Assembly (NCBI RefSeq): GCF_024521635.1
Contig: NW_026250414.1
Span: 868,001-932,000, forward strand
Origin: Tricharina praecox
Lineage: Eukaryota
Direction: 5' to 3'
DNA: 64,000 bases
The position numbers and the translations under genes are program-made. This document shows, piece by piece, positions 4,247-64,000 of this stretch. Within the stretch, counting starts at the first letter, position 1, and every line of letters begins with the position of its first letter. Below the pieces are notes generated by a model. It ran no database searches. It saw only the letters and a program-made list of their open reading frames with translations, and was not told the DNA's origin.

Positions 4247-5682
4247 ATGGCACCTAAAAAGATCATTATCGATACCGATCCTGGGTACTGCCAATCCCTC
4301 AAAGAACTCTCAATGGTTACTGATTGCCAAAAAGCGTTGACGACATCCTAGCTCTCCTCCTCGCTCTCTCCGCATCTGCCGAAGAAGTAGAGGTCCTACT
4401 GATATCCCTCTGCTTCGGCAATATCGACGTTGAATGGTTCCTCCCCACTTCTATACTTCCTCACCACTGCCAGGCCCCCCGCTGACCCGGAGTCCAACAG
4501 CTGTTTACGCAACACGGTCTCGCTCTTCCATGTTCTCGAGCTCGAGCGGACCTGGCGTATCGAGAATGATCTTCCACTTGGCTTCGAGGCACTCAGGAAT
4601 TTCAAACCTGTTGTTTCCGTCGGCGCAGATCTCCCGATCGAGGGGGCTTCGATGCAGTATGATTACTTTCGTGGGTATCTCCATTTATGGGGGTGCGGGG
4701 TATGTGCTGACGTCTCTGGACCGGGGTAGATGGAAAGGACGGACTTCAGGGAGTCCATGAAAACGCACCCCACTTCACTCCAACAGAAATGTGGAAACAT
4801 CTCTTCGGACCTGGCGATGAAACGGACGTTTCGAAAGTGGCCCGCCTGCCGCCGAACTTCAAACCTTCCACGAACCTGAGCCATCTAGAAATCCTGAGAA
4901 CTCTCGAAAGCCACCCACCCGACACCATCACCATCATCGCTGTAGGCCCACTGAGCAACCTAGCGCTGGCCGCAAATACAGACCCGGAGACCTTTCTTCG
5001 CGCGAAGGAAATAGTGGTTATGGGTGGTGCCATCAACGTGCCAGGCAACATCACTCCAGTGGCAGAGTTCAATCAATACGCGTGCTCTTACTCTGCAGCG
5101 AGAATCTATGCCCTTACCTCACCGAGTCCAAAGTCTACCATGCCCTCGTGCAGGGACCTGAAGGCGTACCCGGAAAACCTGTCGAAACAGCTGAAACTCA
5201 CTGCGTTCCCGCTGGATGTTACGACTGTTCATTCGCTTTCCCTCGATACTTTCAATACGGTTACAAAGTCACTCTCAGAGCGTGGGTCGCCGCTGGCCCA
5301 ATGGATGCACCATTTCCTTAGGCCCACCTTCGACCACTTGAAAACCCTCTACACTGAAAAGGACGTCGGCCTCTCCCTTCACGATCCACTGTGTGTATGG
5401 TACCTCTTAACCAACGGCGAAGGCTGGGTCATCGATGAGTCGGTCGATGTGAGGGTCGAAACGGAGGGAAAGTGGACGAGGGGCATGTCGGTGGTTGATA
5501 GGAGGAAGAAGGTGATTGAAGCGAACCTATTGAGTCCGATCAAGATACATGATCGCGGCGTGTGGTTGCATAGGGGCCATGGGAATAGGGTCAGGCTGGC
5601 TTTGGATAGTGAGTACAAGACCTCGTTTGGGGAGACGATGTTGAGGAGGATCTTTGCGTTTGAGGGGAAGCTGGATTTGTAG
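4247..5682 (+). CDS. Inosine/uridine-preferring nucleoside hydrolase; introns ~4285-4334, 4437-4500, 4671-4729
   Basis: N-terminal MAPKKIIIDTDPG-VDD (DxDxxxDD motif), GPLSNLALA, VVMGGA, GNITPVAEFN, PLDVT and LHDPL motifs. Confidence 0.93.
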
Positions 5683-8442: not shown

Positions 8443-8675
8443 TGTATGGTTGGAGCTCTGGCCGAGGCGGGCGGGAAATTCGTGGTTGTCGAGCGGTGGT
8501 GGAAAGCCGGAGGTGAAAAGCCGTGTCGTCTCTTTGTTCACCCGTTCGACTGGCCCGTGCCCAGCATCCGAATGCGGCTTAATCTCTTGACAAGCCGTGG
8601 AACCGAAAGTGTCAACTTCACTTCACTCCGGCGACCTCTCCTTTTCTGTTCCCACATCCAACAGCACCGCCAACA

Positions 8676-9433
8676 ATGCCTTCAGCATCAGCACCAACGC
8701 CGTTTCTTCCGTCTGCCCTCACGACGGCAAGTACACATCTTCACACCGTGTCGCTTCTAAGCAGTCTCGCGCTTCACCTTCCGGACCTAATCGCGTCACC
8801 GAGCCTGACCCTGACACGCACCGCGCTCCCACTGGCCGCTCTGCAAACTGTCTACCTCGTCCTCACCAGCACTTCTACCACACCCACAACCCCCAAAGCC
8901 ATACCAACTACACCGAAACCTGCCTCCAGCGCCCCAAAGCCCAAAAAGACCGTCCGCGCTAAAAAAGCTGCTACTGTGCCCTTCGCCATCCTCACCGCGC
9001 TTGCCTTCACCTTAGTTGTCGGGGCACCCCTCCTCTTCCTACTCCTTGTCGCCTTCGGCGCGCCGGTGACATCCCACCATGCCGAAACCCTCTCCACGGC
9101 AGTCCACCTAGCCCTGCTTACCATCTATCCACTGTCTTTCACCCGCGGCTGGGATGCCGGGAGGTGGAGAGAGATCCTCGCGCTTACTGGCGAGGTCGAT
9201 GAGGCTGTCGTTGGCGCACTGGGCGCCTGCGTCGGCGCGTGGGCCGGCGCCGTGCCAATTCCCCTAGGTATGTTTTGTTCCATCACATCAACACCACCGG
9301 TGGCTAACAATGCACAGACTGGGACCGCGAGTGGCAGAAGTGGCCTGTTACCATCCTGGTGGGGGCTTATGCTGGGTATGCGCTGGGGAAGATGGTGGGA
9401 GGTGTGTGGGCTGGAAGAAAGATGCCGTGCTAG
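8676..9433 (+). CDS. GPI11: GPI ethanolamine-phosphate transferase stabilising subunit Gpi11/PIG-F; intron 9268-9317
   Basis: FGAP motif and spliced [21 protein letters not shown], the PIG-F signature. Confidence 0.93.
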
Positions 9434-12059
9434 TCGTACTACGGCGGATAGAAGTGTGGTAATGGATGATGTGTAGACGACGGGACTTGGAGGAATGCAC
9501 AGGGATTTGTTTCGCGTTTGAGGCTCTGCCACTCTCTGCGGGTCATGGCGAACAATGGTGCTCGACTCTCACTAGCAGTTTGGTGCAATACGCACGCGCG
9601 GGTACAAAATATATTCTACTTAAATCTGCTTCACTCACTACACATAGATTAAATACTGTGACGTTTCAGGCAAAGTTATCAAGGAATGCTACATTTGTGT
9701 AATTTTCGCGACAAGGAAAAGTGGCTGAAGGGGCTGACTCGTGTCACGTGTGGCTGATACGATACATCACACCGGTATCCCTCGAGCCCTACTTGACGTC
9801 GGTTGCCTAGAATTTAAACCATCATTCCTGGCCACAACGGGCTTGGGGAGATGCAAAGACTTCCGGCGGTACGGTACGGCGGTGATACCGACATAACGTG
9901 AAAAGTTACTCAACACCTGGCCGTCTTCCTCGAGTTGTGCACACAACGTCACTCGATAGGAGACGAGTGATCCGTTATGTATGCTAGGAACACGAAATCT
10001 ACTGGTACCTACAGTAGCAAAACGTGGGGTGCAATTGATGCCGAAGGTCTCCGGTAGGTAGTATTACCGCTCGGATTTAAATCCAGCAGTCTCAGAGAAT
10101 ACAGATTTACTCTGGTATTTTTTTTTCCTATTCTCAATTCTACAGTAGGTATCGAAAAATTATACGCAGTGTTGTAAAGATACGCTTATTAAAAGGCCGG
10201 AAGACCCACCGCAGTTCTTCCGAATGCAAGATATTACGAGTGTCCAGAATACCAGAGAACTACCAGAGAACTACCTTATTCGCACAACAATGTACCTTGT
10301 ACAGAGAAAACGTTGACACTGTAGCACTCCCGCTGTCTGTAAATGACGTATTACTTTCCGATACGTGATGTGCGAAAGACCGTACAGCTCCTGTCCTTAT
10401 GGCAGCACGTATTCTTCAGACCTTCCTATAAGTAGCATGCGTATCGAATAAAAGTCTGGTACCTAGTTCTTCGTTATTCAAATGACCGCGGTATTCTTCC
10501 CGTACCAATCGTACCGCACTTTTTGCTACTGTACTTAGTGCGAGGTGACAAGTTCCTCGCGACAAAATCAGGGACATCCTCTTCCGCCATACGTCCAAGG
10601 CTCGCAAAAAAGAAGCGGTTCACTGACGTGCCAGCGGCCCTGGTGTAGGACTTTTCATTATGGCGCGAAGATCGGCATTCTGGTCACATGGCGAGTGAGA
10701 TAGTGTGATTATGGCCCATACACGAAAGCAGATTACCGTATGTATCCCTCAGCCGGCTCCAGTTATTGGATTATTTCTCCGCTGGGATGGGCTTGGCTCA
10801 CGCTCCCTATATGCCTGGCTCCTTATGAGCCGGTATCGGAGTGGAAGGGGAAATAAGCAACATGTGAAGACACATAGGGTCGACTCCGAGTGACAACGCG
10901 CTGCTGGTTGTGCAATGTTTTCAGAGAAGCACGATATTAATTTATCTGGGCTAAGTACTGCACTATTTCTTCCGGGCGAGTCTGGGTGTTGGCCCAAGTG
11001 TGAATCGGAGGTGGGAATCAGACTGATGAGCACGAGTGATTGGTCAGAGGTACTCTACTATATCCTCTGCCGCAGGTGGGGAGGAAGAAAAAAGAGAGGG
11101 CGCAGCGGAAGTAGGATAAGGCCCGAGGCTGAGAAAGATGCGGGAAGGGAGAATGATGAGGTGAAGAAGAAAGTAAAGGAGGTTTGGGATGAGAAGGAAT
11201 AGTGGGGCAGCAGCTGCGGTAAGAAGACATGACGTCCAGGTTGCTGTGGAACGAGGGTTTAGGTCTCAGGGCCCAGTCGTCGGCCAATTACTCAGCGAAA
11301 TACCAAGTACCTAGGAAAGTACGTAAGTCGTTCCCATGCGCCTTTGGAACTGTCAGGTCTCCATGTGGCACAATAAGAGTACGTAATACTGTTACAGCCA
11401 TTCATCCTTTGTCTCGCTTCCCCCCGGGGGATCGCAGTCGGTGAAGGGTCGGAGGAGTAGCCACAATAGGATAATATATAACCACAAAGAGGCAAGTAAG
11501 GGATCAGGCTGGGAGACGGTGAAAAATTCATGAGTGGCGTGGGTGTGCTTACGCCCGCCGACCAATCGAACTTCGAACGGTAGCAAGGTTCACACTGTAC
11601 GTACTGAACTTCGGGTCACTCCGAGGTTCAGCTGCCTGAGAACGTAATGGTAGCTAAGGTTGAATTAGATCGATCGTTCCTCTGATGTCTGGTGTGACGT
11701 GTGCGAATAATGATCGATCTGAGAGTTCGCATTTTTCGAGCTGGAGCCGTTTCATACCTTGAACATTCCGGTTCTATTGGCGAAGAAGCTGCTCAAGTCG
11801 ATTCCTACAACCTGAATCCGCGCAGCCACGGTCCATATGCAGGGCGTGTTTCTGGAGCCACCTTACGTAATTCCGTAGGACTGCCAGAGGCTATGCGCAC
11901 TCCCTATGGTACAGGGAATGGGACGAGGCCCCTTTAGTTGAATGCGAGTCTGCATGTAAACTGGCTATTACCACAAAGTGCGGCTCATTTACAGTGGTAA
12001 TTCAGGCTTCTGCCAGTAAATTGGCGTTTTTTTCCTCATAGGGCACAAGTTGCCATGTT

Positions 12060-24366: not shown

Positions 24367-25453
24367 ATGTCCTCCCTAAAGTGCACTCACAAAGGCTGTG
24401 AGAAGACCTTCACCGATCCCGAGGAGACTTGCTATTACCACCCCGGAGCTCCAATTTTCCACGAGGGGCAGAAAGGTGTGTCCGCACTTTGCCTTGTCCT
24501 TCGGCGCATGTTCACAGAATTCTCTCCGCTAATCCATCACAGGCTGGCAGTGTTGCAAGCCCCGCGTTCTCAGTTTCGAAGAGTTCCTCATTATCCCGCC
24601 TTGCACCTCTGGTAAACACAGCACCACGGCGCCGACCCTCGCGCCCGCACAGACCTCTGGCCCCGGTAGCGGCAGCCAGAAACACCCCGAAGTCGCGGCA
24701 CCCACATTGAGCTCGGACGGTACCGAATCCTACGGCAGCCCGGCATCGAAACCCCTTCCCGTTGTCTCCGGGACCCCCCCTCCACCGAAAGTCGAGAAGC
24801 CGCTAGAGCAGGACCCGACCGATGCGACCATCCCCGCCGGTGCCAGGTGCAAGCGTCTCGCTTGCTCTGCCACCTACCCGGGCGGCCCCCGCAACATCAA
24901 CACGGAGAAGTGCGTGTTCCACCCGGGTGCGCCGATCTTCCACGAGGGATCGAAGGGCTACAGCTGCTGCAAGCGACGCGTGTTGGAGTTCGACGAGTTC
25001 CTCAAAATTGGTGGTTGCTCGAAGAACAGGCACCTGTACGTGGGTGAGCCGAAGAGTGAGGAGGAACAGCAGCACATCGACTGTCGCAACGACTTTTACC
25101 AGACCTATGGTAACGTCATCGTCTCGATTTTTGCAAAGAAGGTGGATAAGGAGAAAGCTGTCATCCAGTTTTCTGAGCGCGAGCTGAGCGTGGATCTGCC
25201 CATGCCCGAGAACAAGAGGTTCAAGGTTATGTATCCACTGTATGGGCCGATTGATCCCAATGGCTCGACATTCAAGGTGATGGGTACAAAGGTGGAGCTG
25301 AATCTCAAGAAAGGTGGGCTCTTCTGTTAATCTTTGTGGGGTTTAAATGCCTAATGTATCGCCGACACAGCCAACGGTATTAGTTGGCCCACGCTCAGAA
25401 GCGATGAGGCGACTAACGAGATCATCCAAATCGGAAAACCTGCGACCGCTTAA
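24367..25453 (+). CDS. CHORD-CHORD-CS Hsp90 co-chaperone (CHORDC1/Rar1/melusin family); introns 24476-24542, 25314-25370
   Basis: Two CHORD motifs ([26 protein letters not shown] and [26 protein letters not shown]) followed by a CS domain (RNDFYQT..KVELNLKK-ANGISWPTL). Confidence 0.95.
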
Positions 25454-27465: not shown

Positions 27466-28900
27466 TCAACCCTTCATGGGAGCTCGGCTGCACTGGATAG
27501 CCTCAGAAAATACGACACGCTGAAGAGAGGATGGAGTTCGCAGGGCGCAATGTAAGACTGCGACAAGAAACCGAGACATAACTTTGATCTCCTTTCCCTG
27601 CCAGTTCGAAACTTCCTCATACGCCTTCTGGGGTTGCGCCATATCGAGATATGGCGGTACTGATAGCCAAATGATGTTAAACAGTTCGAGACGTTTATGC
27701 TGCTTGAGGAAGTCCTGCAACCATCCGAGGAGGTGTTTCAACATCCCCGGTTGCATCGTGTGCAGCAAGTCGGGTTTCGGGAGGTGGTTAACCACGCAGT
27801 CGAGATCCCATAGCACATTGGGACCGTGATGGACGTTGTGACATGTGAGACATTCCCTTGACGCCCGGGTATCCGTATTGCTGAGCGTCGTGTAAAAGGC
27901 GTGGCCCCGACGTCCATGAAGTTTGACGGGATATTCACCCATTTCCTCGCGTGGGCATTCGCACTAGTAGCAATAGCCGTTGCTGATGTTGTGAAGGTCT
28001 CGATGCTCCGGATAGTCGGCAATCCAGGCGGCGGGCGATGCAACAGAGTGCCTGAAGTAGCCATCAGCGCATTGTGCGCAGGACATGTGGCGGTTCGCAT
28101 CAATTAGCGGCCGGAGGACGTGGTGTAAGATGTGTTGCTGTATCATCCGATTGTACTCCTTCTGGGTATTGTATTCGGCGATGCGGACATCGCGCATCTT
28201 AACCGGAATTGGGAGGAGAGCGACTAATAGGATACCGTGTTGGCTCGGTGCCATTCTGACGGTGGCGGGTAGGTTTCCGATCGTCATGTATACTGTCCAC
28301 GCTTTCTTATCACCGGAGAAGTTGGTTAGATGCGTCACATCAGACACAAATATCATCGGTACCATGGTATCGCCGGCGTCTAGAGAACTCTATGGGAATG
28401 ACAGCAAACTATACAAGCCTCTAAGATAGCAATTGAATAACTAAGAAGGGCTCGCACCTGTCGTTCCCACCACCAGTCTGCAGTGTACATCTCACTGTAG
28501 ACGCGGTTTCCGTCATCTTCAAACCGCTTCTCAGGAGCGTAGGAAAGATACTGCGTATAGGCTCGCTGTTGCAGAAGCCATTTCCCGCACTCGATAATGT
28601 CACGGTGCCAGAATTCGATCGGCTCTTTGGTATGCTGCGCATTCCAAACCATATTGTCCAACTGGCTTTCCCGACAGGAGCTAGCCCCGAGTCCGTCCTC
28701 CATTCGATCGAGCATCTGCCGTAGATGGTAATTGGACTTCAACGAAGCCTTTGTCTCATCCTTAATACCAACACTTTCCTTCAGCATCTTGTCGATAGTC
28801 TTCGTGCTTAGCTTTCCAGCTATCATCATCTCCGCAAAGTTGAACTCTTTACGTATTGTTGGAAGGTGTGGCGAATCACCTTGATACCAGCACTATACGG
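27466..28900 (-). mobile_element. Plavaka-type transposase pseudogene (intron-containing, premature stop, 3'-truncated)
   Basis: RVYSEMYTADWWWERQ-(intron)-SSLDAGDTMVPMIFVSDVTHLTNFSGDKKAWTVYMTIGNL..LLVALLP..CADGYFR..AWIADYPE..PDLLHTM are Plavaka transposase motifs; in-frame TAG at 27966-27964. Confidence 0.85.
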
Positions 28901-29311
28901 AGATGTGGGTGGTCAGCGGCGGCGCCGGCAGGAGTCGTCGGCAGGATATAAGAGTCGATAGATAGCCGTCAATGGAAGAGCAACTCTCATACAAAACATC
29001 AGATGTTCGAGTGAAACTATTTCCCGTGCCTTTCAACACGTATTGGAGTCCGTCGAGGTACATCCATCTAACGGGGGGATGTATGAGCAGGGAAGGCCAG
29101 TATTTGGGTACGTATGCGTTATGAGCTGTTGGAATATTTGGATAGAAGGGAAGAGATATTCATATTCGATACAGAAAGAAAAAAGAAGAACCTATTGTCC
29201 GCGGCGAAGACCCCTATTTAAGACTAAGGCGGCCGCCCAAGGTTGGCCGCCCATCAGAGTTGGCCGCCGCCGCGTACAGTTTTCCGAGAAACTGAGCAAA
29301 CAAAACCGTAA

Positions 29312-29872
29312 CCCTGTTTGGATGGCACAAAAACCGAGAAAAAAACTGAAACTGTGGGGCTCCGGCGATAAAACGGAAATTGATCTCTAGAGGTCTTTTC
29401 TTCACCTCCACTTAGTACCGCATTTTAACTTCAACCATGGACTCCCCTTCCGACGATGAGAATTTCACCAACCACCGCAATATATTCCCCCCTCAGCTGA
29501 TGAGACACATTGCACAGCTGGCTGGCGAAGCTGTATATACCACGAGTTCCGGAAAAATTCCGATCCGTACCTCTACTCTTTCCGGAAGACAATATGTCCA
29601 AGAGGTCCTTGCCTACGAAAACCCCCTAGTACTGGGCTGGTGTCTTCACCAAGGCACGGGGAAGAGAAAAAAGCGAGGCTACAATGTTACTATTAAAGTT
29701 CTGGTGAAGCCCATTATTCGAACTTTTGGCTGAATATACTGAAAACTGCCAAACACTCTGTTCACCTCAAGAGTTTCCGGAAACTGGAACTGAACAGTAT
29801 TCAGTGTTCCGGTGGGGATCTGGATTTGGCTCTAAAACTGGAACTGAAAACTAAGGCCATCCAAGCGGGCCC
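29312..29872 (+). mobile_element. Internally deleted PIF/Harbinger-like element
   Basis: Imperfect TIRs ccctgtttggatggc (29312) and gccatccaagcgggccc (29856-29872), each flanked by TAA; subterminal aaactg(g)aactg repeats; ORF 29437 contains PIRTSTLSGRQYVQEVL, resembling the N-terminus of fungal Harbinger transposases. Confidence 0.65.
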
Positions 29873-30686
29873 TAAGGTTGATATTGCCATCATTCATCTG
29901 AACTTTACGGTAGATAGGCACGTGGCCCACCCTTCAGTCGCTTAGCATAATCTTGCCCCTTTGCTTAGGACTAGAAGACATCTCCTTTCATCTGAAGGTT
30001 CGTCATTCTTTTACTTGAGCTTCTCGCTGTCGCTAGTTAGGACCGGCCCCACGGATTACCGTTCCAATCAAAAATTATCAATCGTAGAAGCTACTTGAAT
30101 TACTTGAGTATAGTAGCCTAATCCAACTCGTCCAGTACCGATCACTTCTACTTGGAACCGCGTCGAGCCACCGACGCAGGTTTTTCCGGTACCGAATGGG
30201 GGGGGGGGACACCGGACGAAAAGAAAGATCCGCTGCCACTACGTCCCATCAACACCATTACATAGCGCCCACTCGATACATCTGATTAGGGTACCGCTCC
30301 TAGGCACTCTACTGACATGATCGCTCCAACTACACCAGCAGAACCTCCTCGAACAAGTACAACCGTGAACAGTAACGCCTGGAGGCTGGCAGGAGCATGG
30401 CAAGACTTCACGGGTTCGCGATCCGTAGCAGCAGCATATGAATAAAACAGGGTACGTTATTCCATCTCAAATAGCCCTTTACTATACATCTTTAACATTG
30501 CACCTCCAGTCCACTTGCTCGAATAACCAAAAGACAGCCTTCTGCGCCTCCCCTACTACCCTCCACTACCCCAAGAAAGCCGTTGGATACCCGAAAAGAA
30601 AAGTTGGCGGTGAAGATCGATCGATTGTCGCGAAGGAAAGACAAAGGTGAAACTTGATCCGGCCGTACCGAGGATCCAGTGAGAAT

Positions 30687-30859
30687 CTAGCAGATGACGC
30701 ACATGTGGTCTAGTCACCGTCGTCAGTTACATCCATACGGTTATCCATGACCGCGAGAGGAAGGAAGGAGAGCAACTAACAGCCATCGCCGTAGTTCACG
30801 GGGGTGGTATCCTCCTCGGTCGCAGCGCCGGCGGAGACGATGTTGGTGATTGGCTGCAT
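30687..30859 (-). CDS. Putative a-factor-like (CaaX) lipopeptide pheromone precursor, 33 aa: MQPITNIVSAGAATEEDTTPVNYGDGYHMCVIC; exons 30859-30781 and 30709-30687
   Basis: ATG with A at -3; 71-nt intron GTTAGT..ACTGAC..TAG; spliced product ends CVIC-stop; N-terminus MQPIT and an N|Y junction as in S. cerevisiae Mfa2; HMG-box sites upstream. Confidence 0.8.
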
Positions 30860-31101
30860 ATTGACTGCGGTTGGATGGATAGCGACGAAGGTGTTGTTTG
30901 TGTGTGCTGATTGCTGGTGCTGAGAGAGGATTGCTGGCTGGATGAGAATCTGGAAAAAATTACGAAGATGGGCTCGTCCTTTATGCGAATCTCTCATTCA
31001 TCAGGACGATTCTTCACATCAGCCTTTCTGCTGGATGAAGCCCAACAGAGGACGGCCATTGTCGCGGTGCGGCGGGCTTGCGTGGTTGTGGTGGCGCTCT
31101 T

Positions 31102-31187
31102 ACGATTGTTCCTGAATGAATGCGCTGGCTAAGCGACATGAATCTCTGCGTTCAAATCGTGGCGGGAAAAAAAGAACAAAGAACAAT
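31102..31187 (-). promoter_or_regulatory. HMG-box binding sites (TR-box plus AACAAT elements) upstream of the pheromone-like gene
   Basis: GAACAAAGAA at 31174-31183 (reverse complement TTCTTTGTTC) overlapping AACAAT 31182-31187; ATTGTT at ~31105. Confidence 0.6.
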
Positions 31188-34100
31188 AGCAAGACTTTCC
31201 ACAAGCGATGTACGTGATGCAAGGGGACAATCTAGCGAGCGGTCAGCCATCAACAGACACTCGTAACGGAATCGCTGTGGACTCTTTCTCGTGGAGACTT
31301 GAGTAGAGAATGGGCTTGTTGGATTACATTGTCCCCTCGAGCGGAGAAATGGGCTTATTGTAGTACCCATTGTCCTCTCGAGATTGCAATTGTCCTCCCG
31401 AGAGGTCTAGATCTCCGAAACGTGTGCCTCAAGACCGGATATGGCTACAGGTGCCCTTGCCCGAACAGATCTGCTCGTTCGTCTTGTATTTTTTGGTTGT
31501 TGCCCGTTGGCGGGTCTATTGGTCTTACCTAAAGATTGGAGCATTGGTTCAACGAGGCTGGCAATAGAGTACCTACATAGCATGCACCTTCTACCGCCGT
31601 GCCGGAGATGGAGTCACCCACCCTCCTATCACATGGCGCCCACTCGATACATTTGAGAACCGCTATTGGACACTTGACCGACATGCTCGCTCCATCTACA
31701 CCAGCAGAACCTCCTGGAAAAATTACACTCGTGAATCGCAACCCCTGGCAGGAGCATCGCAGAATGTCACGAGTTCGGCCAGGATCACCAGAACTGCGTT
31801 CTTGTTTTTGGAGTGCCAACTGTGTCCGAACAGACGCAATTCCTTGAAATATCGCGGTTATTCCCTGAGTTTGAGAGTAGTTTTTCAGTAGCTTCTGGTT
31901 AGAAATCAGTCCAGTCACATGTTCCAGTGCCAATGCTGCCCCAAGTAAACCAGGTGAAGTGACTGAACTACCTAGCTTCGGACCGGTTCGTTGAACCAGT
32001 TAACATGCCCGGTCGGTCAGTTGCATACTTACCTAGTAGGGAGAGGGAGGTGTACCAGCACGTGATACCGGTACTGCTTGCAGGAACAGGCTTACTATCA
32101 CCATCCAAGAAATCACTCGGAGATGCCTACGTTCCAACTTGCCCGCCATGCTTTAGGAGTTCGCGTCTGGTATCTTCGAGCCCACCTATGCTGGACGATT
32201 GCTACTACTCCGGTGAACTCGAAGATCCAATAAAGAAACACAGTATATCAATTGGATGGCTCGGAGAAGAAACACTGACGATGATGATTGCGTTGTCAAC
32301 AACCATGGCAGCCCCGAAAAGTGCATACAGTACATACATGCGGGGGGTTTACTATAGCTATTTAGGGCTTTTAACTATACACTTTCGGATATCCGGAGGT
32401 TTCATTGTTTTGTTGACGGTCTCCGATAGACCGGATGACAGCGACCCTGGTCCTCGTCATCGGCCCCCGGCTTAATACAACTTCCCTATCGATATGGGAC
32501 CGGCAGGGGAAGCAGGGCCAAATAGTAAAAAGTTCGATATTCATCAATCTTGGGGTTATGCGCTTTCACTCTACTCCTCTACTCTTCACTCTAAACAACT
32601 CTTCACCATTTTAAGATATGCCTACGGTCAATGTTAATTTTTTACAGCGTCTTATGATATGAGTGATCTCTTCAACACCAGCCCGACCCTCGGTTATCTA
32701 CATCTATACCCTCTAATCTAATATATGTCAAGTTGATAGTGGATATGGGGGGCATATAGTGGTGATACTGGTAGATTGTAGCTATCGTGACTCGTGAGGC
32801 GGCTGCGAGGATGAGGCAGGAGGTAGAAAACCCCGATTTAAGCGCAAGATTCGAGCTTCTAACCGCAGTACGAACCTTGACAGAGGTTTTGCGGACGGCA
32901 GTGCAAATGGCGTAAAAGCGAGAATATCCTTTTGGAGAAGAACCTCTTGAGGCATATTTCTCGCCCGTTCTTGTCACCACTCCGTGCACTAAACTTCAGA
33001 GGATCACCGACTTTTCGCGCCGGGGCGCAGAGGGGTGCTACCATTTCCGCACAGCTTCTTGAACATCATCGGCTCAACTGTCGGCTTCCGCCGTCAGATC
33101 GTTCGAAGACTCTCCTCATGGCTCTCCGAGCAGCTTGCCGTACAGCTAGGTCGCCTTCCTCGGCCGTGCTCTCGATTTCCGGCTCCGGATCGTTCGCCGA
33201 ATCGTTCGAAAACTCTCCTGAGTTCTGATCACTTGCAGAACAGTCAATTTCCACACCGCTGTTTGGATCTAGGTACTCTCATTTCTAGCGTGTGATCAGA
33301 GGCTAACAATCTTTATCACTCGCCAAACGGCCAACTGGGCAGTGGACAATCGAGCCTTGCGGTTAGCATAACCACGAATGGGGTCGTGTTTTCTATCCAG
33401 AAGACGCAAGAAGCTCGCCGAGAAGGTTAATCCCCCGGCGGGACGCAGAGCCGGTTCCGTTCGAGAAGCACGCCATCCGGTGATACGGAGTACCTAGGTA
33501 TGACCCGATAGCCAGCTCACCCTCAAGACATACCACGATGTTGGAACAAAGAAGGTCCGTCAGTCAATGCACCGGATATTTAAGACGTCCAGCAGGAAAA
33601 ACGGGCATGAGCCCGGAGAAGTTCAGGGGCGCCTTCGCTGCCTGCACGTAGGCCTCAGCCCTGTATGGGGTCGAGTTGTGGTGGAATAATCTAGACCTAC
33701 AGGAGAGGGGAAGCGTTGAAGAATTCCGGGGACTGCAGTCAACCTGTGGGATCGAGATCTACCGCCGCCTGGCACATAATGGCATCCCCAGGAATGCGAT
33801 CGCAGACGGATGGTGGGGAAAACTAGCCGCCGGCGAACCCGATGGCCACAGTTTTTATCGGGTCGACCACGCAAAAAAGTACTCTACGGCAGCCGCAAAT
33901 CGGTAGCGGTACCGGCGTCCCTCGCCTGTCTCACACGTCGAATTACCGATAAACGTTAGCTAGAGGCTCGGTTGTGCGGGAGAGATGAGGCAACTTAACA
34001 ACAGGTAGATACCTAGGTACTCCGGAAAAAGGACAAACCGGGCCGTGATACAGACCAGCCATGTTAGACTTCCTGCGCAACACCGACGCTGGCGGGTTAG

Positions 34101-36361: not shown

Positions 36362-37558
36362 ATGGTCTCGATCCGCTCCCTCCTGGCCATTGCCCTCGCC
36401 GCCGCCGCAGCGCAGGTCTATGCGTCGCCCATCGCCCTGGCCGACCACACACATCTCTCGATTTTTGACTACGCCAGCCCGCCCTCTTCGCTCTCTTCGC
36501 CGCAAGGCTCCGGAGGAGGGTGCAGCGAGATCCTTCAACGGCGTGCCTGGTGCGCAACCCTCTCCCCGAGTGACACCTTATGCCCCTCCCTAACACCCCA
36601 TATGTAGGCAATCCCTGAGCGCCTCAGAGAAGCGGGCGTACCTCGACGCGGAGCTATGTCTGATGTGGCAGATCCCGGCGCAATCGGGACTCGCAGCGAC
36701 CGTCAGCCGCTACGACGACCTAATCAAAGCGCACCAGCTACAGTCCGGCGTCGTCCACGGCGACGGCTGGTTCCTCCCGTTTCATCGCCTGCATATGTAT
36801 GCGCATGAAAAGCTGCTGCGTGAGGAATGTGGATACGAAGGCGCACAGCCGTATTGGGATGAGGAGGCGGATGCCGGGAGGTTTACACAGGCGGAGATTT
36901 TTGATACTGAGTTGGGCTTTGGCGGCACGGGCAGAGTGGGTGATCGCTGTATCACCGATGGGCCGTTTGCGAATTACACTGTTTGTCCCCCTCCCCCACC
37001 TCGCCCCACCACCTTCCCCGTGGATCTAACCGTGGGAAACAGCTCCACACCGGCCCCGGCTACCAAAACACCGATCACTGCATAACACGCACGATCAGCG
37101 ACCTCGAAAGCCGCAACAGCGCAACCCAATTCGTCGAGGAGTGCCTGGCACTCCCCACCTTCGCCCGCGCCTGGCCGTGTATCGAGTCACGCCCGCACGC
37201 TGGCGGCCATGCCGGCGTCGGCGGGGAGATGATGAACCCCATTTCCAGTCCCGGCGGTACTTTACCCCTCCTTTACCCCCACCCCCCCTCTTTCTCCCGA
37301 CCCAGCTGACAAACAAGAGTAGACCCACTATTCTACCTCCACCACACGTTCCTGGACCGCGTCTGGTGGCGCTGGCAGGAGCGGGACCTGCCGGCGCGGC
37401 TCGAGGATATTGCGGGGTACACGACGCAGACAAGACCCCGCAGTGGGTGGGTCAATGCTACGCTCGACGATGAGCTTAATATGTATGGCATCATTCCGAA
37501 TGCCACCGTGAGGGAGGTTATGGACATCAAAGGGGGGTTGTGTTTTGAATATGTCTAG
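36362..37558 (+). CDS. Secreted short tyrosinase/catechol-oxidase-like di-copper protein; introns 36550-36607, 36981-37042, 37257-37322
   Basis: Signal peptide MVSIRSLLAIALAAAAAQVYA; CuA AHQLQSGVVH..FLPFHR, PYWD, CuB PHAGGH..SSPG-DPLFYLHH; ends CFEYV with no C-terminal shielding domain. Confidence 0.92.
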
Positions 37559-38165: not shown

Positions 38166-40046
38166 TCAATGCGCAACAGCCTGCACCGTCTTGGGATACA
38201 ACCCGACCCTATCTAGGGGATTCCACCTCCGTACTAGATCCCGCTGTACCTTCCCGTAGACATACATGCCTATGCTGAGTACACAAATAACCGCCTGAAT
38301 GGCGCCAATGATATAAAACATTTTCTTGGCACCCACAGCGGCGACCCACTTATTAACAAAGAACGTAGACCCAAACGCCCAAAAGTTCTTCAGCAGGAGA
38401 ACGGACACCATCATCTCGACGGAGATATCTCTATGCGCGTCGAGCATGTACGAGAACGTAGCGGTGCAGGACATGACAACGCCGAACGTGAGGAGGCCGT
38501 AGCAGATACTGGGCGCGATCCAGTGGGTTGCCGCCTCGGTCGCGTAGCCGAACGCGAAGATCCCCGGGAGCGCGAACACCGCCACCGGTATCACGAGGAG
38601 GATCCGGAACTCCGGCTCGTAGATGTTGTTGTTCCGCTTCGCCATCCACTTGGCTACGACGTCGGAGAACACGCCGGCCGCGAAGTACGACAGGATCGCG
38701 CCGATGAACGGCGCCGCGTACATGTACCCCAGCTGGGTGGGGTTGAAGTTGTAGGGCGGCGCGGTGAAGAGCTGCGCGAGGATTAGGGAGACGCCGATGC
38801 CCCAGGTGATGAACGTGCCCTGGAACAGGAAGCTCCACAGCGTGGCGGGGTAGATGAACAGCACGAACGGCGCCAGCAGGCAGCGGATTATGCTCTCGTC
38901 CGAGAAGCGGCCGTTGTACACGCCGAGCTCCTGGAGGTAGGTTCGTTTCGTCTCCTCGACCGCGGCGGAGCCGGCTTCGGGCTTGCTGTCGGCCGCGGCA
39001 TCTTCATCCTGTGCTGCGGCGAGCTGCTCGTCGAGCTCGGAAAGGTTCTCGCGCGAGGACGTGTCCGTGTCGAAGATCGCGGGACGGTTGTAGGCGTGCT
39101 CCGGGACAAAGAGGAATACGAGGATGCTGGCGACCCCCAGGAACCCGGCCATGATGTAGAACTGCGTCCGCCACCCGTGCTTCATGCTGATGTAGCCGCC
39201 CAGCACAGGCATGAAATACGTGCACCCCAGAAACGAGAGATTGTAGAGCGCCACACGTTTACCGCGTTGGTGTACCTGCGCCAGTTGTCAGCCCTGGCCA
39301 CCACAGCCCGGAAAACCCACTGGCACTCACGAAAAACAAATCCCCAATGGAGCTGGGCACCAGCATCTCGAACGCGCCCAGACCTAGACCCTCGACAAAC
39401 CTCGCGCCTAGGAACGAATCGCCACTCTGCGAGAACCCATTCCACAGCACGCCGATAAACACCAGCAGGATCGAGACGAGATAGACGGGCCGCTTCCCCC
39501 AGATCCGCGATACCGCTGACGCGATCAGCCCTGCCACCCCGCTCGCCCAGAACTGCCATCCGCTCCAGCGAGATACCATCGCGTACGACGTGTCGAACTC
39601 CTTCACGAGCACACCGTGGATCGGCGCCACTGCCGGCCCGACTATTGCCGCTGCAGGGTGTCAGCAACCACCACACCATGCGGCAACTGCCCGCGCCGAG
39701 GGGCTTACCAATGGCACTAGCGAGACACAGCGTGAACATCGTCAAGTCCCGCTTCCACATCGGCCAGTTCTGCGATGAGACCCGGGCGGTCAGTCATTGG
39801 TTGCAGATGAAGTAGTGTTGTCGGCGGGGGGGGGGAACATACCAACGGATCATTTGGCGAATTCGATGGCTGCGGGATCAACAATATATCCACCTCCTTC
39901 CCGCTGCCATGCTTGAGGTGGTTATGATGGTGCGCCGCCGCCTCGCCGTCGCCGTCGCCGTCAACGGGGACGATGCTGTCCTCGAACAGCCGCGCTGTGC
40001 CCGGCACATGGTGTCCGGACTTTGGCTCCACGATTCCGACGGGCAT
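38166..40046 (-). CDS. MFS transporter, DHA1/Hol1-like; introns 39842-39770, 39708-39651, 39330-39276
   Basis: HVPGT..LIPQPSNSPNDPL-NWPMWKR, WGKRPVY, IGDLFF-VHQRG and YEPEFR motifs; multiple hydrophobic helices. Confidence 0.92.
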
Positions 40047-42464: not shown

Positions 42465-43610
42465 TTAGTAGACCTTCTTCTTCTCGTCCACCGAGAGGGA
42501 GCCGGGGCCCATGTTGACCAGGAGGACCAGACCACCGCTGGGAAACGTCAGTACGTGATGGCGCATCTGCGAGAAGTAGAGGCAACTTACACAATCGACA
42601 GGATCTGGAAAAAATCGTACTTGGCAAAGTCCCTCTGGGGGTGGTGGGGGTGAAGCTAGTCGGCAGTCAGCACGGATCCAGGCAGGGACAGACGGAAAAG
42701 AGGAACCCACAGTCCAGAAGTTGTTGATCAGAACATTAAAGATGCTCAGAATGACCACCAACATGACGGCACTCCACTTAGCCTTGAAGCCGACAACAAC
42801 CATCACGCAGGCCACGAGTCCGACCAAGCTGACGAGAATCCTGCTGATGGTCCATTCGCCCGAGAACACGAAGCCGATGAACAGGAAGACGAGGAGGACA
42901 CGGCCGGCGAGCTGGAAGTAGACCTTGCGGTCCTTCTCGTCGATCTGCGGGAGTCCGGCAAAGGCGAACTTCTTGCGGTGGAACGAGTCCGAGAGCACCA
43001 TCAACAGTCCTCCGACGACCGACAGGTTGCGGAGGAAGAAGTTGAGATCGAAGATGAGACCATAACCGAACGCCTGCGTGACCACGACTCCGAGGAGTCC
43101 TCCGACGGCGTACTCTGAGTGCTTGCGTGCGATGACCAGTGCGGAGCCAGCCAGCATGAAGATCACGTTCAGCCCAAGGAAAAGGTGTGTTATTCCAGTC
43201 GGAACTATATTCTCGGTCAATCACAGTCAACACCGGAGGTGGTGCGGGAGAAACGAACTGTGCCGGTAGTCGTGGAGGTAGGATAGCTGGTCACTCCATT
43301 GCGTGATTATCCGCAACGCGTCTTCGAGGAAGGTTACCACGATCAGGAAACGTCCTATCATAGGGAGGTATCTGTAAATCGGAGTTAGCTGACACGTCCC
43401 TGACAGCTCGGGGGGGAGGAGGGGGGTTCGGAAGGCGTACGGCTTGACGGGGTCAGCGAAGGTGTCGAGGAGGTCCTCGATCTTGCTGGTCTGCGCTCGA
43501 ATGGCGTCAAGCGGAGAAGGGTCTGAGGTAGCGGAGTTCATGGAGGGACCACCGAACGGCCTGTTGTCAGGGCCCAGGTGGTAGCCTGCAGTTCCTCTGA
43601 TCTGCGACAT
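42465..43610 (-). CDS. ERV29: ER cargo receptor Erv29/SURF4; four introns (43440-43372, 43258-43205, 42710-42656, 42590-42538)
   Basis: GRFLIVVTFLEDALRIITQW, FFLRNLSVVGGLLM, DFAKYDFFQ, GPGSLSVDEKKKVY SURF4 signatures. Confidence 0.96.
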
Positions 43611-44800
43611 GGTGTCGAGCGGTGGTGAAGTAGGGGTTATCGGTAGCTGTTGCGGGTGCTGGTGAAGCTGGATTGAAAGCGAGCAAAGCTCAAGGTCGTC
43701 GAGTCGAAGTTGAAGCGGTTGAAGTTGTTGTCGTTGTTGTTGTTGCCAGGTGTCGCAAGTCTAGAACGAAAGAAGGGACTCGCGCGGACGGGATCGATCA
43801 ACAGGAGGCTCAAGCTTCCGAGTTGTGTCTATCGTTTCACGGGAGTGAATCGGTGGTGGCTCTGTTGTTGTCGTGACGTGCAGAAAGAGAGAAAGAAGAG
43901 GGAGAAAGAAGAATGAAGGAGGAGAAGATGTTCGTCACGTAGGGCAGTTTTCGTTGTTGGGTAGGAGAGGGCAGCAAGTACGAAGAGAAGAAGCAAGGTG
44001 GTCAAATCATCAACATCATCGCTGTCGGCCCAAATTCCTCAAAATGCATTACAATGTTCAAAGAGGCTGTTTTTATTGGCTCAGTCTCTCGAGGAGATAC
44101 TTTTGAACATTTCTAGACGCCGTCGCGGGGCCAGTCCGAAGTCTTGTTACATATCGCGAATTGGGTTCCAGTTGCGGCGACGGCAGGAAGGGATCGCGAT
44201 TGAGTTGGGGAAGTGAGGAGGGATCGCAACAAAGAATAGCCGATGTGTCAACGATATTGAGGCTGAAGATATTCCGCGGCGAGTGTAGAAGAAAAGAGAT
44301 GGAGATGAGGCAGAAATAAAGATACGCAGTCTAAGGCAGCTAAAGAGGAAGAACTGGAAGGGACGTTACGTAGGTCGGCAGCAGGCAGGCCCCGCCAGCA
44401 GGCACACCGAAGCCGGGAGCTCGGAATGTGCGGATTACATGGTGTGGGGGGCTTGGCTCAGTGACTAAGCGTGTGCGAGTCACCAGCTCTAGGCACGTGA
44501 TCGCACCTGCTCTGCTCACTCGATCGGGCTGCGGTTGCTGCCTGCATACAGCTGCTGCTGCTTGCTCCATCACTGGGATTTGCTCTCTCTTCCTCGCTTT
44601 CTATCTCTCTCAAACCCTTCGTTATCCAAAGCCCATACAGCCATCATCGATATTACTCCTGTCTCTCCGTTTGATCATAATAGAGTACCTACCTACAGCC
44701 TTCTTTCCCGTTAGCGCACCTTCAATCCGTCTTCTTTTGATTCTTTTGAGTCTTTCAAGTGAATTGTTACCTTCTTTGTGTCCATTACCCACCGTCCATT

Positions 44801-46040
44801 ATGCCTTCCATCAACGGTATCACCGCCAACATCCTCACTCATGACGGCCCGCTCGAGGAGTTCGAAACGGACGAGTTTCCGGGAGGAGTTAGCTGTTACA
44901 TCACTGCTCACAGGTTCTTATCCATTGTCAACATGTGTACTCGCTCCTCTGACATTCCCTCGCAGTGGTCAGCAGTTCTGGCTCAACTACAGCATCGACC
45001 ACCCGATCCGAGCGAAGGCCTTGAGCGTTGAATTCCATGTCGACGGCAACAGGGTGGATACACAGTTCCCGATTGCAGCGGACGGTGATGGGCCCCCGAA
45101 GGTGGGACCCGTGAAGTCGAGTATCACATCTCAGTATGGAAAGGACGCGGCGGGGAATGTCTACCGCCGGGACGTCTTCTTCACACTGGTTGAGAAAGAC
45201 AAGAACTCCTCCTCACGACCGTCGAGTGCAGCCGGAAAGGATTCACAATTCGAGTCAGCTGGACTGATCGAATGCAAAGTTTTCAGGGCTGAGAAGACTG
45301 GGGAGTGGAGCGGAATCATCAATCCGGACGAGATCCCGGACCCGGTGTCGGTACGCCAAGTCTATCGTCGGAAAGGCCTCTCTCACGGTGTCCGGATGGG
45401 TGCTTGTATCCCAGCGGCAAAGACGGTGCGGTACACCTTCAAGAATCTGGACCCAGAGGATGCTCCCTACGCATTCTTCAGATTCTACTACCGCTCCAAG
45501 AAGTTCTTCTGCAAGTTAGGCGGCAGTTGGTCCCTGACCAGACCCGGCTCGCCGATACAGGGCATTCCTCGACCCCCCAGCAGAGGCCTCAGCCGGAAGG
45601 TGTCGCTGTACCAGTCGTTGAGCAAAGGGAAGGAGTATCTCGCTGATAGACTGTCGTCCCGTCGAGCTGGCTCTCCTGACCCATCCTCGCTGGCCGTGTC
45701 GACGACCAACAACAACCATGAGAGCGACGAGGAAGAAATCCACCGATTGGAAGCGGAGCTGGGAATGTGTCTCACCAAGGATGTCGATGATGGTGCGAAA
45801 CTCCGAATGCTGCGAAATAGGCTCAAGTCTCTGGGAACCTTGCCACCACCGTCGAGGGAGCCAGCGGATCGGGTCAAGAAGTCGAAAGGAAAGGAGATTG
45901 AGGTGCATCCAGATCGTGAAATGCACTCGGGGCTGCATGTGCACGAGCCATCATCGTCGGTCGATAAAGACACGAATAGCAGCAGCGATGGGAGGAATCT
46001 CGACGGTGTGAACCGCGTCAAATCCCCGGTGCCTCGTTGA
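44801..46040 (+). CDS. Fungal hypothetical protein (N-terminal beta-rich domain resembling DUF7918); intron 44914-44965
   Basis: MPSINGITANI..PLEEF..SCYITAH-SGQQFWL..VDG..GLIECKVFR..PYAFFRFYYRS pattern, then a Ser/Arg-rich tail. Confidence 0.78.
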
Positions 46041-62700: not shown

Positions 62701-64000
62701 ACGTGGTATGCCTAATCGTGGCGGAGCCTCCTGCTCCTGTCGAGTATACAGTATCATACGGAGTAGAGTTGGTGCCTCGCATGTCAGCGGCTGGCGGCTG
62801 GCAGGCAAGCAGGCAGCCCCCACTGTTTTCTACCTACTTGTTGCTGGACCTTCATCTACAGTAGGTAGAGTACTGTTGCATCTATTTCACCCTACATACA
62901 TACAGCCAGCCAGCCAATTGGCCGCCCGCCGATGCAGGTATCGACGAGGGAAGGTCGAATTCCCGTCCGTGATTGGATGCGCCGACGACGATGGGAAATT
63001 TCCTCAACGCGGGGGCCGAATGGCTGGGAAGTAGGTGGGAAGTAGGTGGGAAGTAGCTACCTTCTGAACGCGACGGAAGGAAAGAACTCCAGGTTGGGTT
63101 CGGATGCTGCCAGGCAGGCCATCAGGCCACTTTCTTTTGAAAGAGACGAGACGAAATGAAACATGCCTCCTCCTCCTCCTCTTCTTCTTCTTCTTTTCTC
63201 TTGCTTCCGCCTGACCGGAGGAAGACGGGTGCTGGACGAGGCCGGCACTGGCACTGAGGGGGCATGGGGGCGCAAGTTGCGTCCACACCGTGGAATTCCC
63301 GACGCGCGAAATCGGCGGGTTAGATTAGAGTACACTTCTACCGGCTCCGGCGAGCGGGCGTATTTCGCGGTCTGTCGATCAGTCGGTAGCTTCCCTCCCC
63401 CCACTCCCTCCCCCGCGCACTCCCTCCCCCGCGCAACTATTCTACCCCGCGCGCGCGATGGCCCGCACGGCCGCACCCCGTCTGATCAGTGCCGTTGGGG
63501 TGTCGGGGAACGCCTCTCAGCACTTGCGACTCGAACCCTTCACCCTTCACCCGTGTCTGACTTCCTTCCTTCCTTCCTTCCTTCCTTCCTTCCTTCCTTC
63601 CTTCCAAGTTCTGTCTGTCTGGCTGGCTGGCTGACTATCCACTGGCCGCTTACGAGCGCGAGCACGAGCGCGAGAGCGAACGACGATCCGATCTTGCAAG
63701 ATTCGGATGTGCAGTACCTACTCTACTGCAGTGCACTGTGCAGCGGTGCGGTGCAGACTCCTGGTGCAGACTGTATGGTGCGGTGCGGTGCTGAGGTGAG
63801 AACGATAGGGCTGAATTACCGTTACTCTACTTGCTCTACGATACGGTAGGTACTCTGGGTAGGGTAGTTAGAGTAGAGTGGGTAAAAGTGCTCTGACAGG
63901 TTCTCGGTAGATCTGCGGATTCTTGGCGGTTGGGGAGGGGGGAGGGGGGTGAGATGAGAAAGATGGGTAAGATGGATGGGTAAGTAGGTGGACGGGTGAT

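Follow-up and report, generated by a model that had tools for sequence, protein, structure and literature searches.

The 64,000-nt stretch of DNA that was analysed, referred to here as the window, carries on its minus strand a short two-exon gene that is preceded by three further exons of a spliced transcript. The parts of this locus are collected in Table 1, together with the features that lie around it. The start codon of the gene is the ATG at 30859..30857, with an A at -3. Exon 1 comprises 26 codons and the first base of a split Tyr codon, and it encodes a 22-residue pro-region, which starts with M-Q-P-I-T and ends with P-V-N, as well as the beginning of the predicted mature part. Exon 2 finishes the split Tyr codon and continues with H-M-C-V-I-C and a TAG stop, which places the CaaX box CVIC at the very end of the peptide. 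The intron has a recognizable branch sequence, ACTGAC, 13 nt 5' of its acceptor. The joined coding sequence is 102 nt long and encodes a 33-aa peptide. Splicing is obligatory for the CaaX box because only the spliced mRNA brings CVIC into frame: the unspliced frame from ATG 30859 meets a stop after 27 aa and has no CaaX, and the CaaX frame is blocked 5' of exon 2 by stops within the 71-nt intron. The preliminary description had proposed this same model (ATG at 30859, with exons of 79 and 23 nt on either side of a 71-nt intron), and the independent joining of the coordinates reproduced it and gave the identical peptide.

Table 1. Parts of the two-exon gene, its possible leader and the surrounding features, in window coordinates.
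Feature	Coordinates	Strand	Details
Exon 1 of coding sequence	30781..30859	minus	79 nt; coordinates joined by script
Intron	30710..30780	minus	71 nt; donor GTTAGT, branch ACTGAC, acceptor TAG
Exon 2 of coding sequence	30687..30709	minus	23 nt including the TAG stop
3' untranslated region	30460..30686	minus	at least 227 nt; X1 contig matches 30460-30709 with 0 other letters
Leader exon 1 (first seen)	31328..31400	minus	X2 contig record 4; 38 further letters beyond 31400
Leader intron 1	31327..31232	minus	96 nt, GTAATC..TAG
Leader exon 2	31104..31231	minus	X2 contig record 4
Leader intron 2	31103..30979	minus	125 nt, GTAAGA..AAG
Leader exon 3	30922..30978	minus	X2 contig record 4; end 63 nt before ATG 30859
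Direct repeat copy B	30257..30418		162 nt, just beyond the 3' UTR
Direct repeat copy A	31628..31777		upstream of the leader exons
Plavaka-family transposase relic	27466-28892	minus	Pfam E 1e-32, 5.6e-18 and 0.006 over three frames
Nucleoside hydrolase piece	4711-5682
PIG-F piece	8583-9476
CHORD+CS protein piece	24533-25330	plus
Tyrosinase piece	36594-37085
MFS transporter piece	38166-39287
SURF4/Erv29 piece	42465-43220	minus
DUF7918 piece	44763-46040

Transcription and splicing of the gene

Contigs of public runs were aligned to 30200-31400, and two of the four runs, X1 and X2, which belong to two different studies and have two organism codes, contain one contig each in which 30709 is joined directly to 30781. 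The joined contigs skip exactly the predicted 71 nt, and the CT..AC borders of the gap on the plus strand correspond to GT..AG on the minus strand. The X1 contig (282 nt) consists of 30460-30709 followed by 30781-30812 and the X2 contig (162 nt) of 30580-30709 followed by 30781-30812, each with 0 other letters. The other two runs, X3 and X4, are soil metatranscriptomes from another study and yielded no contig that aligned to 30200-31400. Within exon 1 the contigs cover its 3' 32 nt (30781-30812). Contig cover is absent from all positions below 30460 and from 30813-30921, so that the ATG and the 5' 47 nt of the coding sequence fall outside it. From another X2 contig, of the same orientation, two further GT..AG introns (96 nt and 125 nt) are missing in the interval from 31400 to 30922. 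X1 and X2 are read as cDNA, or transcriptomes, of this species because three clean intron removals are found within 1.2 kb; their nature as RNA runs is presumed from these three joints. The exact junction in cDNA-like contigs of two runs establishes a real spliced and transcribed two-exon gene, and the junction of 30781 with 30709 that the preliminary description had put forward as a check was thereby seen once in X1 and once in X2. Both spliced contigs stop at the same base, 30812, which lies 32 nt into exon 1, and their other ends differ. This shared end could reflect a branch of the assembly graph at 30813, caused by a variant or by alternative upstream sequence, or it could reflect low depth (2.7 and 3.3).

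The exons upstream of the gene contain no convincing open reading frame of their own. In the pheromone frame the spliced leader contains a stop and no ATG, and on the long transcript the ORF therefore starts no earlier than 30859. Two upstream ORFs are found in another frame of the leader, and one of them, which has 72 codons and an ATG in leader exon 2, overlaps the pheromone start. A longer precursor that begins at the in-frame genomic ATG at 30997 was considered and rejected; this ATG lies inside the 125-nt leader intron that is removed in X2, and the in-frame stop of the spliced leader, with no ATG before 30859, excludes such a precursor as well. The transcript at 30922-31400 and beyond may serve the pheromone mRNA as its 5' leader, or else it is an RNA of its own, non-coding or regulatory. 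A long transcript laden with upstream ORFs would hinder translation of the 33-codon ORF unless there is also a shorter mRNA, which would begin nearer to the ATG; the alternative is that the long form is a distinct RNA or a regulatory one. A search for promoter motifs in 30860-32000 on the minus strand gave no TGAAACA and no TATA[AT]A, and a single CTTTGTT at 31181.

Related sequences and genomic surroundings

A further X2 contig, record 3, is 264 nt long and has a single region of likeness to the window, at 30672-30704. The match is 33 nt long, contains 2 mismatches and is bordered by flanks that are unlike those in the window; it spans the last five codons of the gene, the stop and 15 nt of the 3' UTR. 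Hand translation of the 30-letter upstream flank of record 3 gives N-T-P-V-N-N-S-N-N-W directly before the matched M-C-V-I-C-stop, compared with T-T-P-V-N-Y-G-D-G-Y-H in the window. T-P-V-N is kept through 3 synonymous third-base changes, whereas the core from the Asn to the Met-Cys differs. This comparison is based on the 30 visible flank letters and on a 33-nt match for which the mismatch positions are not given, and the CaaX box of the paralog is accordingly a predicted one. Record 3 would represent another gene for a CaaX peptide, one whose mature core is different; selection acting on the peptide frame, on the processing site and on the CaaX box would be expected to leave such a pattern. 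No second copy of the gene was found within the 64-kb window.

Searches for relatives elsewhere were also carried out. A protein word search with a 40-codon stretch of the window gave no candidate that shares three words, and a metagenome scan by peptide with a 50-codon stretch gave 555 pattern matches, 0 of which were confirmed by tblastn. A degenerate DNA pattern was built from the last five codons and the stop, a gap of 65-95 nt and the V-N codons, and within the window it matches only the gene itself. In the metagenome collection the same pattern identified 3 loci. Two of these (L001 and L002) were rejected as relatives, as they offer no plausible ATG and intron model. The third (L003, 1942-2048) was also rejected; it is an uninterrupted 27-codon ORF from an ATG to M-C-V-I-C-stop, which has neither an Asn-aromatic site nor any other likeness to the gene, and it is probably a chance occurrence, as the other two are taken to be.

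The protein-coding neighbours place the window among the Pezizomycetes. The best 8 organism-named matches of the SURF4/Erv29 exon are all Pezizomycetes, with an identity of 74% to Trichophaea hybrida and of 65-69% to Geopyxis, Choiromyces, Kalaharituber, Tuber, Tirmania, Morchella and Terfezia. The best 9 organism-named matches of the CHORD/CS exon are likewise Pezizomycetes, from Geopyxis and Pyronema at 71% down to Peziza at 57%, and the next match beyond this class is a Eurotiomycete at 49%. Two of these names were checked against the taxonomy.

The gene lies in a gene-poor stretch, about 5 kb from the CHORD/CS gene at 24.2-25.3 kb. The seven annotated pieces of the window are ordinary housekeeping or metabolic genes, and none of them is an obvious mating gene. 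Pfam gave no domain in 8 of the 10 ORFs within about 7 kb on either side; of the other two, one gave a tyrosinase domain and one a weak match to Plavaka transposase. Rfam gave 0 matches on 29000-33000. For a 156-aa ORF on the minus strand at 31529-31999, Pfam showed no domain and a search of 1.84 billion representative proteins gave 0 relatives; this ORF is probably not a gene. In these Rfam, Pfam and protein searches nothing else came up that would explain the locus. The Plavaka relic is a decayed and frameshifted copy of a DNA transposon about 2 kb from the gene. Additionally, the entire transcription unit is bracketed by the two copies of a direct repeat, which are 75.3% identical over 162 nt (E 9e-27) and have no further copies in the window. 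This repeat could be a transposon relic or the scar of a duplication. Toward the far end of the window, at about 63563-63602, a short tandem repeat with a 4-nt register appears as a ladder of BLAST self-matches.

Pheromone-like features and alternative readings

The 33-aa precursor has no signal peptide by inspection, and its CaaX box C-V-I-C stands immediately before the TAG stop. A Cys in the X position of a CaaX box directs farnesylation, owing to the specificity of the farnesyltransferase. The a-factor filters described in the available text of Srikant et al. consist of a prenylation motif, a length below 100 aa and an Asn-X site 5-20 residues before the Cys; the ascomycete cleavage site is described there as Asn-X, where X is aromatic or uncharged and the mature length is 5-20, and cross-species conservation is named as the most discriminating filter. 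At 33 aa the precursor lies well below the length limit, and its candidate cut Asn22|Tyr23, in which X is aromatic, would leave 8 residues up to Cys30. All three of the filters that can be read from a sequence are passed by the peptide. The criteria given in the available part of Wilson et al. (2023) are an N-terminus rich in Ser and Thr, a G-Y motif near the C-terminus and a CAAX or CPAX end. Gly26-Tyr27 of the peptide lies two residues before the Cys, and Ser and Thr make up 5 of the 22 pro-region residues, which is a moderate enrichment.

The locus is best read as an expressed two-exon micro-gene of a Pezizomycete that encodes the precursor of an a-factor-like lipopeptide pheromone, and a probability of roughly 65% is assigned to this reading. 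The preliminary description had reached the same a-factor-like interpretation from traits of the a-class (a short peptide with no signal peptide, a CaaX end and an N|Y site). These traits are present in the 33-aa sequence, and the interpretation gained support from the transcript, the exact splice, the paralog that matches the CaaX exon region and the family filters.

By analogy with a-factor of S. cerevisiae and M-factor of S. pombe, Cys30 would be farnesylated in the cytosol by a Ram1/Ram2-type farnesyltransferase, V-I-C would be removed by Ste24/Rce1-type proteases and the new C-terminus would be carboxyl-methylated by a Ste14-type enzyme. The 22-residue pro-region may then be trimmed in two steps, of which the last cut, after Asn22, would be made by an Axl1/Ste23-type metalloprotease. 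The predicted octapeptide, YGDGYHMC(S-farnesyl)-OMe, has a calculated monoisotopic [M+H]+ of 1163.53; it would be exported by an ABC pump of the Ste6/Mam1 type and might be recognised by a partner through a receptor of the Ste3/PRE1 class. All of these biochemical steps are proposed by reference to the two yeasts, as are the limits of the mature peptide and a function in mating.

The first alternative is that the spliced transcript is real, and that it is non-coding or acts through something else, the 33-codon CaaX ORF being a chance by-product. How often such an ORF arises by chance was addressed with a script that enumerated constructs of the form ATG..GTNNGT..CTRAY..YAG..CaaX-stop, of at most 100 aa, on both strands of the 64-kb window. 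Exactly 1 such construct is present, and it is the gene at 30859-30687. In 100 first-order Markov simulations of 64 kb, in which the location of the intron was left unconstrained, the mean was 0.70 constructs, and at least one occurred in 40 of the 100; with the added demand for an Asn located 6-14 residues before the Cys, the mean fell to 0.18 and at least one occurred in 12 of the 100. The pattern by itself is not beyond chance because at least one construct arises in 40 of the 100 simulated windows. For yeasts, Srikant et al. give a figure of 100-700 ORFs in each genome that satisfy the filters for CaaX, length and Asn. Such constructs are therefore common, at a mean of 0.70 per 64 kb and in the hundreds per yeast genome, which agrees with a by-product, as do upstream exons that look non-coding and carry upstream ORFs, an upstream 156-aa ORF that has no relatives, and the empty result for an orthologue in the protein word search and in the metagenome scans by peptide and DNA pattern. 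What lifts the gene above chance is that independent contigs carry the predicted junction: the sole construct of the window coincides with an intron that is verified by cDNA-like contigs. Moreover, the paralog agrees with the gene in the region of the CaaX exon and preserves T-P-V-N synonymously in surroundings that are otherwise unlike, the ORF begins at the first ATG after the in-frame stop of the leader and has an A at -3, and several independent a-factor features occur together, namely the M-Q-P start, Asn|Tyr at 22/23, G-Y and Met-Cys before a-a-X. A chance by-product is, on this evidence, considered unlikely.

A second alternative, which is regarded as quite improbable, accepts a genuine prenylated and secreted peptide and gives it a role other than mating, such as autocrine or density signalling or hyphal or developmental signalling, possibly through the same Ste3-type receptor. 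CaaX peptides this short (40 aa or fewer) are not known from fungi outside the lipopeptide pheromones, and all the features fit the template of a mating pheromone, which speaks against such a role. The mature cores of the two paralogs differ, however, and this is not what redundancy for a single mating signal predicts. A precedent for autocrine action is also available in Fusarium oxysporum, where both pheromone/receptor pairs take part in the autocrine control of germination, as described in the available part of a review. The last alternative, in which the locus works through a different ORF on the long transcript, for example the S/Q/P-rich one of 72 codons from leader exon 2, is very improbable; the ATG of that ORF does come first on the long spliced leader, but the ORF is of low complexity and the similarity to the paralog is confined to the CaaX exon and lends it no support.

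Genes of the a-factor type have been elusive in filamentous fungi. The Pezizomycetes include truffles and morels, and their mating biology limits their cultivation. By the title of a 2025 paper by Krappmann et al., an a-factor-like pheromone, PpgB, has reportedly been described from Aspergillus fumigatus, a filamentous ascomycete outside the Sordariomycetes. Because genes of this type are very short and little conserved, those of filamentous ascomycetes other than Sordariomycetes long escaped discovery, and before the Leotiomycete candidate none was on record there, according to the available text of Wilson et al. (2023). In the 2013 genome paper on Pyronema confluens every class of mating genes was found except the pheromones, and the word pheromone is absent from a Morchella genome paper. 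The literature searched, of which the 2025 A. fumigatus PpgB paper and the supplements of the Pyronema paper and of Wilson et al. were not part, contained no a-factor gene of a Pezizomycete. It follows that the gene is undescribed for the class within that literature, and within the same scope the suggestion in the preliminary description that the pheromone is new for its lineage holds. A validated lipopeptide pheromone would supply a missing half of the mate-recognition system of the Pezizomycetes. It would also provide a synthetic ligand for a Pezizomycete Ste3-type receptor and a template (intron-split, N|Y...M-C-a-a-X) with which the gene could be found in relatives, and it would show how much of the layout of yeast a-factor is ancestral.

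Comparison with known pheromone genes

The likenesses to known pheromone precursors are likenesses of layout only, and at 33 aa the peptide is too short for a statistical test of homology. The CaaX box of yeast a-factor is CVIA, and the box found here, CVIC, differs from this sequence in its last residue. The M-Q-P-I-T start is shared with S. cerevisiae Mfa2, and a literature search for this start returned no supporting text. In the S. cerevisiae a-factor precursor an N-terminal extension comes first, then the mature part and last the CAAX box; the precursor is cut at T7/A8 and then at N21/Y22 and yields a peptide that is exported by Ste6, as described in the available text of Chen et al. (1997). 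The gene resembles MFA1 and MFA2 in that it encodes a short cytosolic precursor with the same three parts and no signal sequence, and the candidate cut at Asn22|Tyr23 of 33 residues nearly coincides in position with the MFA1 cut at N21|Y22 of a 36-residue precursor. The yeast precursors are 36 or 38 residues long with a mature part of 12, whereas the precursor described here has 33 residues with a predicted mature part of 8, and the gene is intron-split, unlike MFA1 and MFA2.

The fission-yeast M-factor provides a counterpart for the ends of the mature peptide. M-factor of S. pombe, like that of S. octosporus, is a nonapeptide that starts with Tyr and ends with Met-Cys(farnesyl)-OMe, and it is encoded by intron-bearing genes, three in S. 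pombe (mfm1-3) and six in S. octosporus (So-mfm1-6), according to the available text of Seike et al. (2019). The Tyr start, the Met-Cys end, the pro-sequence and the intron are all shared, although M-factor has 9 residues compared with the 8 predicted here. The several M-factor genes of a fission-yeast genome specify one identical mature peptide, in contrast to the paralog described above, which has a different core. The lineage of M-factor is the Taphrinomycotina, whereas the present gene belongs to the Pezizomycotina.

The Pezizomycetes are the earliest-diverging filamentous ascomycetes. A tentative proposal, which is on the whole doubtful, is that they retain the ancestral a-factor architecture of both yeast subphyla (M-Q-P, Asn|Tyr at about 22, Tyr...Met-Cys and an intron) and that a duplication produced two paralogs with different lipopeptides. 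If this is true, the paralogs would encode two distinct farnesylated signals and not redundant copies, which hints at a second recognition channel or at a role outside mating.

The a-factor-like genes of Sordariomycetes and the putative ones of Leotiomycetes, the latter being the family of B. cinerea BCIN_13g03330, share with the present gene a short product, an N-terminal part that contains Ser and Thr, the G-Y motif and the CAAX end, and they too are of a kind that usually goes unannotated (Wilson et al. 2023, available text). The Leotiomycete candidates in that text are longer, at 45-64 aa compared with 33 aa here, and most of them close with CTVM, the variants being CVVM, CIVM, CTIL, CSIM and CSVM, where the present peptide has CVIC. 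X = Cys is missing from the CaaX ends listed there, and the H-M that stands between G-Y and the Cys in the present peptide is likewise a difference from these candidates. An a-factor ORF interrupted by an intron is found in Yarrowia lipolytica, where YlMFA4 was missed by pipelines that trace ORFs; the fission-yeast pheromone genes, which also contain introns, were missed together with it by the pipeline of Srikant et al., as described in the available text of that paper. There, YlMFA4 is one of four copies that encode the same pheromone and the other three are intronless, and it is in the interrupted reading frame that YlMFA4 resembles the two-exon gene described here.
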